Part shown: positions 24,701 through 34,937 of the stretch, piece after piece
Numbering within the stretch: position 1 is the stretch's first letter
How the letters are laid out: every line of letters starts with the position of its first letter
Position numbers and translations under genes: made by a program
DNA from: Amoebophrya sp. A120
Taxonomy: Eukaryota; Protista; Dinoflagellata
DNA length: 64,000 nt
NCBI GenBank assembly: GCA_905178155.1
Contig: CAJINV010000012.1
Span: 62,001-126,000, forward strand
Reading direction: 5' to 3'
Notes under the pieces: model-generated
What the model saw: the letters and a program-made list of their open reading frames with translations, nothing else
Told to the model about the DNA's origin: nothing
Databases searched by the model: none

Positions 24701-27700
24701 GCGCGTCTGCGTCAGCGACAGGACCGGAAGACATTATCCTAAGGAAAAACGTCCCCAACCCATAGTCAAGTTGGGAATCTAGCAACACAAATCGAGAAGT
24801 TTTGGGAGCTGTGCATGACAAGCTTCCATCTGCAGTGTAGTGCTGGTTGGCAAGGGAAGCCGCATCAGAAAGCCACTTTCTCATCCTCATCCTGTTTACA
24901 GCATTACAAATTTCAAAACACGATTGGAAATGCCTCCCATGGAGCTGCGCATTACAAATGTTCGTGTCATTGCGCATTTGCATGACAACCCTGGGGTGGG
25001 GATGTTTTTACTTCGGATAGACATGCCCTCTTGTTCGCCTTCCGCACCAGCGGGGTCGTGCTTTGCTCCATTATGTTGACCGGCATAATCTTTCATGTTC
25101 TTGGCAGGAGTAGCTTTATTTAATGGCGGTTTCTTTTTCTTCTTGCCTCCGCCGGAAACCCCCGCGTTCTTGCCCTGATCCAGCTGGTCCGCCTGTTTCT
25201 TCATGTAAACGTGAAAACCCTCCTCCTCCACCAAGCCGGAGGATTTCAATATCCCCTCCGTCGTCTCTGTGTCGTCGTGGTAGTTATGCTGTGTAGTTGT
25301 TGTATTACCTCCACCTCCCCGGGACGAGGAAGAGGTCGCCGCAGAGGCCGTTTGCTGGTCCACGCGGATCATGCCCCGAATCATCTCTCGGTAGGCTTCG
25401 TCCTCAGTTCGGTCGTTCTGCTTTTTATTTACAGCTGTAGACGAGGAAGAAGAAGCAGCTCCCGTTCCCCCTCCTTGCAGATAGTTCTGATTCGTATCTG
25501 ACGATGCAGTCTTCTTGTTTTTCCCAGCAAAAAACGCACTTGTCATCGCCGACTCGATATCAAATGTAAAAATGTCTGGGTCTGGAAGATTGCCGGGTTT
25601 GTCATGCATATTTTGAATGATCCACGATGTCTGTGATGCATGCCCTAGCATCACAGATTTTTAGAGTACTTTGTGATGCCTCTACCGCATGAGAAATGCC
25701 CTCTCCACGTAGCACAAACTGGAGTCCTTTTGCTGGTCATGCAATACAAATTTTTTTAGAATCCAGAGACAGCATTACAAGTTTAGAATCTTCCAGACCC
25801 AGACACTTTTACATTTGATACTCGAACATGCCGCCAATGGTGCCCAAGCCAAGCCCAGCGCGCACCACCGCATCTCTTTCTTCCTCCAGAATTCCCCGCT
25901 TGTTCTTCATCATCTGCATAGTACTTGAAGTCGCAGAGGAACCTCCCGATGGCATCATGCCGGACGGCGTGTCACCTCCCGTCGCAGGGGATGATCCGAT
26001 ATTCGCCAGCACCTCCTGTTCCTGTTTCTTCAGCCGGTCTTCTTTCGCTTTTCGGATTTTCTTATGATCTGCAAAAGTATCGCACTCGTATAAATGCATA
26101 AACAAATTTCCTCAGCATGAGAGATAAAATTTCTAATGCTAATGTACCTTAAGAAAAAGATTTGCAACGCATGATTGCAATACGAGTGCGATACTTTTGC
26201 ACAGGATACTTCTCCTTGCGATCCAGCTTTGCCTGCTCCAGCTGTTTCTCGCGAAGTTCTTCCTTCTGCTTCTGCAAAGCCTGCTGCTTTTCCTTCTCTT
26301 TTCGCTTCTGTTCTAGTTCCTGCTCCCGCTTCGCCTGCTCTTGCTTCCGCTTTTCAAGGATTTCTTGCTTCTGCTTTTCTAATATGGAGCGCAAAAGTAT
26401 CGCAGTCGTAGTTGTAATTGCAGTCATGCATTACAAATCTTTTTCTGAAGGCAAATCCGCATTACAAATCGAATTTATGATGCTAAGGAAATTTCAATTT
26501 GTAATGCAATTGATACTAGTAAGTACGATGGTTTTGCAGTTCATATCTAATTTTTCTTCCTCCTTCGCCTTCCTCTCCTGTTCCAACTTCTCTTTCGCCA
26601 CAGCCCGCTGCCGGTTCTTCTCCTGCTGCGGTATCCTGAGGAAAAACGTCCCCACACCGGAGTCAAGTTGGGAAATCTGCTAGACAAATCAAGCAGCTTT
26701 GGTTGTTTCGCATGACAGGCTTGCCCTCGTAGTGTGATCCTGTTTAGCTAGTTAAGCTAGCAGCATCACAGATCTCGCATATCATGCTGATTGTCGCATC
26801 CCAAATCCCAAAACACGAATACAGCATGCTTCTCATGGGACTGGCTCCGCATGATCATCATCATCATCATGTAGTGGACACCCGCTCCCGGCGCCACAGG
26901 TCAAGGATCCCCTCCCCGGGGGGTGGGCGAGGAAGCACTTTCGGCGACCTCATCATACAAAAGCCGAGCGCTACCACGGCAAGTCGCCCCAAGAAAAGTA
27001 CCAACCAGTCGGGAGCTACCCACCACACCTGATCGGCACAGCCCGGCCAGCAAGCCGGGCGCGACAGCCCAACATACAGAACGATCCAGGACCCGACCCA
27101 TTTTACGCCTTACGTTTTTGTTCTCACGGAAGAGACGACGCACCCCTTTGGGTTAAGGGGCGAGACTCTCCCCTAAGCCGCAACCCCGCCCAGACAGGGG
27201 AGGCTGGACCGTTTGTGCCTTACCTGCGGCACGGGCGAACAGGGCAATTGCACAGACCACAGTTGTCAAACCATCGACCAGTTGTTTGTCGCTGCTGACC
27301 GGCAACCCTCCTGGGGCACAGCGACAACTTAAAGGCTTAGTTTGTGCATGGCAGTCATAGTGCAGCCTTGTTCTGCAACAGAAGCAAAGGGTGGGAGGGG
27401 GGACTGGGGTCGTAAACCGGATTCGTCTCGGAGCTTACCACTTAAGGGTGACCGGCAATCCCCTTCATACATAGTGACCCGGTGCCCTTCGATGTTCATT
27501 CTTGTTGCCACCGCTTTGCTTCTGTTGCAGAACACGACATGATCAGCAGGCGCTGTATCGTCCGCCGAACACAAATACGGTCTCGCGACTGAGGCGAACT
27601 CGACTGCCTAGGCAGCGAAGAGCAGGAGCTAAAGCGCCCGCTAATGTTACACTTCTGCTTTTGTTTTTTTTCTTGTCTTACAGTCAGCTCATCGAGAAAA

Positions 27701-34937: not shown

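Follow-up and report, generated by a model that had tools for sequence, protein, structure and literature searches.

A divergent LINE nested in an introner of Amoebophrya sp. A120 and the 7.5-kb non-canonical intron it probably creates

Within the 64-kb stretch of DNA analysed here (the window), a gene read from the minus strand contains a non-canonical intron of 7,545 nt (26627..34171; joint 26626-34172) in which an introner is split by a LINE. The left part of the host introner (26632..26848) begins with a terminal inverted repeat (TIR) and the right part (34104..34171) ends in one, the outer termini at 26632 and 34171 matching at 21 of 24 positions. Outside these termini lie the direct repeats TGCGG (left copy, 26627..26631, removed with the intron) and TGCGC (right copy, 34172..34176, retained in the mRNA), which agree at four of five positions. 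The insert is bounded by two copies of GCATGAT, a target-site duplication (TSD) lying at 26849..26855 (LINE 3′ junction) and 34097..34103 (LINE 5′ junction). A preliminary description of this locus had proposed just this geometry, i.e. an introner split at a duplicated GCATGAT with its outer TIRs and direct repeats surviving, and we recovered it in every part. Between the LINE and the ends of the intron lie 75 nt on the right, where the element starts, and 229 nt on the left, where it stops. The host exons upstream (34172..34324) and downstream (26546..26626, 81 nt), both on the minus strand, correspond to record positions 194–346 and, by subtraction, 347–427 of contig 1 from sequencing run X6.

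In-script removal of the 7,241-bp insert left an introner of 292 bp, which aligns over its full length with a sister of 285 bp at 24735-25019 (71% over 215 nt in BLASTN). Through this sister the host element is, judged by sequence similarity, a member of a repeated family, as expected of an Amoebophrya introner, and it has the TIRs and 3–5 nt direct repeats that mark such elements. A strict caller of TIRs with direct repeats returned 26 elements in the 64-kb window vs none in each of three shuffles, so the introner calls do not reflect chance. In run X9, 97 raw reads show a loose end at position 25019 of the sister introner, and these ends match by eye the exon beyond it; it therefore seems that this LINE-free family member is likewise removed by splicing.

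Elsewhere in the window, two introners of one family lie six bases apart (57749-57926 and 57933-58087), implying either a tiny exon or a tandem insertion. The region 35000-49200 is a repeat-rich block of several interleaved families, with a conserved end motif near 36461, 39640, 40237, 41770, 45736 and 47425, a 14/21-bp tandem array (~42028-42502) and an N run (40932-41063). The right end of the introner at 47182-47418 is missing, the repeat of the adjacent block starting in its place, and the sequence just before that point recurs near 49035-49118.

The LINE occupies the minus strand and comprises a 5′ leader of 514 nt (33583..34096), a single ORF of 1,925 amino acids (27805..33582), a 3′ untranslated region (26871..27804, the last 236 nt being common to a truncated copy with seven differences) and an (ATG)5 tail (26856..26870, seen as five CAT units on the plus strand). 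The ORF is free of internal stops from 33582 to 27805, in agreement with the earlier account of a 7.2-kb insert with an intact ORF and an (ATG)n tail. An APE-type endonuclease is assigned to approximately residues 44–335 and a reverse transcriptase (RT) to approximately residues 600–1200, the latter holding two low-complexity insertions, while the remaining C-terminal part is unassigned. RTE elements likewise encode APE and RT in a single ORF. With both TSD copies, the 514-nt leader and the endonuclease at the N-terminus, the element is likely to be full-length as far as sequence can tell, the window offering no second 5′ end for comparison. No long terminal repeat emerged from a self-BLAST of the element, and neither AATAAA nor ATTAAA occurs on its sense strand, where few would be expected and where the signal may not apply. 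The perfect TSD and the intact ORF point to a young insertion; sequencing depth over the ORF was zero in the four runs examined.

The endonuclease and RT named in the preliminary description are borne out by sequence motifs, by relatives and by a low-confidence fold, and yet neither domain is recovered by Pfam (0 families at E ≤ 1 for the 1,925-residue ORF). Searches of the PDB by sequence and by profile gave nothing relevant for the ORF, two word-index searches for homologues screened 7,985 and 7,992 candidates without passing any, and 55 pattern matches in metagenome contigs included none related to it. A full HMMER scan of 1.84 billion proteins returned eight at E ≤ 0.001. Neither the sequence nor the profile searches reached a member of the named LINE clades (RTE, L1, Tx1, CR1, I and R2). 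Five of the six relatives looked up bear Amoebophrya names and four of these five come from strain AT5, with identities of only 20–30%. One relative, P0001, is a gene model in which a V-SNARE domain (E 7e-8, residues 56–120) is fused to a LINE-ORF relative; its LINE-like part begins at the end of the endonuclease, possibly because gene prediction merged a SNARE gene with a LINE lying within it or next to it.

Across six aligned proteins (the ORF and five relatives), the endonuclease residues N48, D222, N224 and D283 are conserved in five and D328 and H329 in all six, E76 having been aligned by eye. Relatives P0002 and P0004 match PF03372 (E 4e-4) and PF14529 (E 0.017), both below the curated cut-off. 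In the RT region, K738 and R740 are conserved in all six proteins, and D923, QG 981–982, DD 1116–1117, K1158 and G1194 in five, the sixth protein ending earlier. An atlas search placed residues 600–1400 next to RVT_1 clusters (score 0.94; RVT_1 on 52% of cluster members). A fold model built from an eight-row alignment is of low confidence (mean pLDDT 43.9), and against it Foldseek listed four matches at E ≤ 0.001, all to human L1 ORF2p (best E 3.8e-7), together with EEP-family matches for the endonuclease part of this low-confidence model. In structural alignments of the same low-confidence model the best partner was the R2 RT (Z 12.8, rmsd 5.1, 306 aligned), followed by the L1 RT (Z 12.2, rmsd 7.0, 355 aligned). 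A single-sequence fold of residues 601–1350 was dropped (pLDDT 36.3). The locus thus combines the characters of a LINE: APE/EEP endonuclease residues, intact RT motifs, a TSD and tail without long terminal repeats, and 5′-truncated copies. From the conserved catalytic residues, the RVT_1 atlas match and the modelled fold, taken with the TSD, the tail and the truncated copy, we assign the element to the APE-type non-LTR retrotransposons as a divergent lineage.

Contig 1 of run X6 (1,514 nt, depth 6) joins 34172 to 26626 exactly, skipping 7,545 nt. This is the junction that the preliminary description had asked to be sought in RNA, here present in one contig of a run presumed to be RNA; that status is a guess, no run containing this sequence being on record as RNA. 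The same contig also lacks introns of 189, 260, 168, 151 and 268 nt. Its five listed exon pieces contain no mismatch, and exactly 81 nt are left for the exon that follows the long intron. The flanking exons join in one reading frame, the downstream one being charged and coiled-coil-like, so the continuous coding sequence expected across the element is found. The mRNA retains one copy of the direct repeat. There are five equivalent cuts (TA..CA, AT..GC, CA..CG, GC..CC and CG..AC), none of them GT-AG, GC-AG or AT-AC. Tens of thousands of non-canonical introns occur in Amoebophrya, where no U1 snRNA has been detected. The introner is likely to be removed from the mRNA at these non-canonical ends, on the strength of one presumed-RNA contig that could derive from either allele. 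All evidence for the junction comes from one contig of one run; X8 and X10 do not cover the exons of the gene, and X9 covers only 25019-25511.

The host protein itself yielded only a weak Myb match on one exon; this Myb/SANT match (E 0.19) falls on the first covered exon (34835-34966). The adjoining 189-nt intron (34646-34834) differs from the five introner introns of the gene in that moving the cut would give it GC-AG ends; its plus-strand listing is CT..AC/cut +5.

Compared with the roughly 297 nt that the intron would measure when empty, 7,545 nt represents the approximately 25-fold expansion that the introner had been suggested to tolerate. The ends of the LINE-bearing intron are predicted to pair at −44.6 kcal/mol. 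Shuffled sequences average −13.8 and reach −22.9 at the lowest, and six other introners give computed values between −20.5 and −56.5 kcal/mol, a range that includes the value for the LINE-bearing intron. Both inverted repeats and both direct repeats survive, and this would be why the exons are still joined: the junction is observed and the mechanism behind it is our interpretation. On the modelled pairing, removal of this type of intron is likely to be set by its paired ends; the subterminal parts of the introner are intact too.

The transcript might instead have come from cells free of the LINE, the filled allele being recent, polymorphic in the culture and either mis-spliced or silent, in which case no 7.5-kb intron would be removed. 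The youth of the insertion, as judged by its perfect TSD and intact ORF, suits this view, and so does run X6, whose depth is zero throughout bins 27338-34017 of the LINE interior and which offers no link between the transcript and the filled allele; none of the X6 contigs at 26890 carries the letter of the LINE copy at 26856-34096. Missing intron coverage is, however, expected of a spliced gene at a depth of 6. Of the words sampled from 25000-34900, a stretch of which the LINE makes up 73%, fractions of 0.86 and 0.84 occur in two runs, so LINE sequence is present in both, though these words do not fix it at the locus. An empty-site joint (26848/55 to 34097/104) is not listed for X6, though coverage is too thin to exclude one. 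An X6 joint between 26653 and 34102, with 22 letters on one side, was considered as an empty allele and was read as another family member instead. Introns of up to 35,152 nt are, moreover, annotated in A120 in the accessible part of the genome paper (PMC7789003). On balance, we think a LINE-free origin of the transcript improbable and retain removal of the filled intron as the preferred reading.

The only other LINE copy in the 64-kb window is a 5′-truncated one of 251 nt (50334..50584, minus strand), which is 97.2% identical in BLASTN and has the same tail. It is carried by a second introner of another family (50284..50801, direct repeat GAAC, TIR match 21/24), so both copies in the window sit inside introners. 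Its TSD, TGCAT, lies at 50332-50336 and 50586-50590 and measures 5 bp, against 7 bp at the first site; both copies end in ATG tails, and both target sites share the 9-mer GCATGATGA. The sites lie at different offsets from the left end of their introners (217 nt at site 1 and about 50 nt at site 2), the families being different. A LINE-free sister introner (59164-59416) carries nearly the same target site, which must therefore predate the insertion at site 2. Both copies lie on the minus strand; the co-orientation with host transcription reported earlier applies at site 1, whereas at site 2 frames are open on both strands across the join.

The LINE 3′ end (26856-27282) is represented in run X6 by several contigs that vary in sequence, with a summed depth of up to 376 at 26890, a depth that is not a copy number. 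At that position all of these contigs have the letter of the truncated copy. The variant contigs, together with a further truncation junction at 26949, suggest many short copies in transcribed regions.

These features bear on a further explanation, that the 7.5-kb unit is an autonomous introner mobilised by its own ORF, or else an artefact of assembly. An ORF does lie between intact TIRs, and A120 introners with retroelement homology are reported in the part of PMC12130899 available to us. The insert nevertheless has a TSD and a tail of its own, its 3′ end recurs in another introner family with a different 5′ truncation, a sister introner exists without it, and the protein is of the APE+RT type, no transposase signal having been found in it; a TSD, moreover, is not expected from misassembly. 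We give this alternative, in either form, very little credence, and regard the LINE as a passenger in a pre-existing introner.

It had been suggested that the LINE uses introners as a niche, reaching them through their GCATGA motif. Introner sequence amounts to 9,089 of the 55,541 bases considered (16.4%), counted with 16 introner segments added by hand and with the LINE copies, one nested insert and the N run left out; motif counts exclude the two target sites. For A120 as a whole, introners account for 17% and coding sequence for 40.6%, so that introners would make up about 29% of the non-coding part. GCATGA is abundant in introners, as stated earlier: 73 of its 122 sites fall there (8.0 vs 1.05 per kb, a 7.6-fold enrichment) and 28 of 35 introners carry it. 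GCATGAT is not enriched (3 of 19 sites in introners), and neither CATGATGA (0 of 6) nor GCATGATGA (0 of 2 other sites) falls in introners elsewhere. Related LINE 3′ ends in X6 contigs include a further truncation junction at 26949, which does not continue with GCATGA and whose start resembles TGCTGAT; 8 of 16 TGCTGAT sites lie in introners (5-fold enriched), and the junction is therefore ambiguous.

As the hexamer favours targeting and the motif best matching the tail does not, these counts lend dedicated targeting of introners weak support. The niche proposal stands as to the enriched hexamer and the location of both copies; it is weakened by the longer motif and by there being one independent insertion only, since site 1 was selected for lying in an introner. 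The chance of site 2 falling in an introner is 0.16 under uniform insertion, higher after purging from exons and 0.60 if GCATGA alone is preferred. We accordingly weighed the possibility that the LINE is specialised for introners, with an endonuclease and an ATG tail that recognise the GCATGA-type subterminal motif of several families and so gain it neutral sites in transcribed genes. Such adaptation would account for two copies out of two in introners of two families, at the same 9-mer and both on the minus strand, although introners hold only 16.4% of the bases; a precedent is provided by Tx1 elements, which target Tx1d DNA transposons (PMC6719617, consulted in part). Against it stand the single independent insertion, the longer motifs and the presence of unrelated cargo of ~830 nt in another introner (54101-55085). 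AT5, the source of four of the five named relatives, is annotated with 99.98% GT-AG introns, a further argument against it, though the relatives are only distantly similar and the annotation may miss non-canonical introns. Adaptation to introners is on this evidence possible and, in our judgement, unlikely.

The unrelated cargo lies in an introner of a 150-bp family as an insert at roughly 54133-54960, which is GC-rich, contains short repeats and has a run of T close to its right end; it resembles neither the LINE nor any other sequence in the window. In all, 3 of the 38 introners with both ends carry cargo. In the portion of Dataset S2 of PMC12130899 that we could examine (52 of 58 A120 rows), nine rows pair a TIR model of <400 bp with an element end of 1.4–14 kb, and six of these nine have peptide matches to LINE, Gypsy, DIRS or Maverick elements. 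Going beyond what the authors of the table state, we infer that these large element ends may represent nested cargo of many kinds, alignment inflation in big families being perhaps part of the explanation. Introners would on this reading be general sinks for mobile DNA.

The explanation we favour, and hold to be probable if not secure, is ordinary target-primed insertion into a pre-existing introner, followed by survival within an end-defined intron. The APE domain would nick near GCATGAT, and the freed end could pair over 3–6 nt with the AUG tail and so aid priming, a type of tail-target pairing described for several LINE clades in the accessible part of PMC6007223. Reverse transcription would then copy the element, and repair would leave the 5–7 bp duplication. 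The LINE would persist since removal is set by the paired ends, which the insertion leaves untouched, and a mild motif bias, combined with the elimination of copies landing in exons, would explain the excess in introners without dedicated targeting.

More speculatively, a LINE lineage too divergent for Pfam may have tuned its tail and endonuclease to a motif of many introner families, and so be a hyperparasite in a niche made by host splicing; we offer this as a tentative idea that is more probably wrong than right. If it were true, most new copies would land in end-defined introns, be transcribed in host pre-mRNA and be removed without cost, and, should the targeting hold genome-wide, it would amount to a safe-haven strategy dependent on RNA processing.

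A 292-bp introner that has been lengthened 25-fold and is apparently still excised with base precision serves as a natural mutant, and it argues that interior length and most interior sequence are irrelevant to removal. The 7.5-kb intron also offers a long, uniquely mappable place to seek lariat, circle or linear intermediates, and the case exposes a LINE lineage missed by profile searches. Amoebophrya introners, non-LTR elements in these genomes, introns of up to 35 kb, LINEs targeting DNA transposons and tail-target pairing are all already published. A literature search, mostly without subscription papers, turned up no account of a LINE lying within a non-canonical introner.

Tx1 elements use a fixed site in one host transposon family; at our locus there are two families, different offsets and only the 9-mer in common. 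In Xenopus, Tx1 is likewise a non-LTR element that sits in a host resembling a DNA transposon, which the part of PMC6719617 available presents as a case of safe-haven targeting; the hosts here differ in being two families that act as introns inside genes. RTE, CR1, L2, I and R1 elements, as far as the accessible text of PMC6007223 goes, also have a short TSD and a short-repeat 3′ tail that overlaps with the target sequence where the 3′ end joins it, whereas the ORF here has 1,925 residues with RT insertions and no sequence-level link to a named clade. Euglenid nonconventional introns, in the sections of PMC11282704 seen, likewise have non-canonical, TIR-paired ends, reach several thousand nucleotides and are removed in an unexplained way; they belong to an unrelated lineage, and those sections mention no nested LINE.

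Also close to our case are the Amoebophrya introners of Farhat et al. (2021; PMC7789003), which in the parts of that paper accessible to us have the same inverted repeats, 3–5 nt direct repeats and non-canonical ends. The A120-type start reported there (TAT + 7 nt + AAA) also occurs at the termini here. The same parts propose a hairpin joining the introner ends and note non-LTR elements in Amoebophrya genomes; nowhere do they mention a retrotransposon lodged in an introner, as is seen here, or any test of how long the interior may be. Retrotransposon-derived introners (Gozashti et al. 2025; PMC12130899, seen in part) share with our locus the retroelement homology inside A120 introns; there the retroelement makes the intron ends, whereas the LINE here is a passenger that does not reach them. 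That introner survey, in the text available, treats secondary insertions as noise to filter, and some rows of its Dataset S2 may, in our reading, hide passengers. Our locus cautions that homology to retroelements within TIR introners may stem from passenger DNA.
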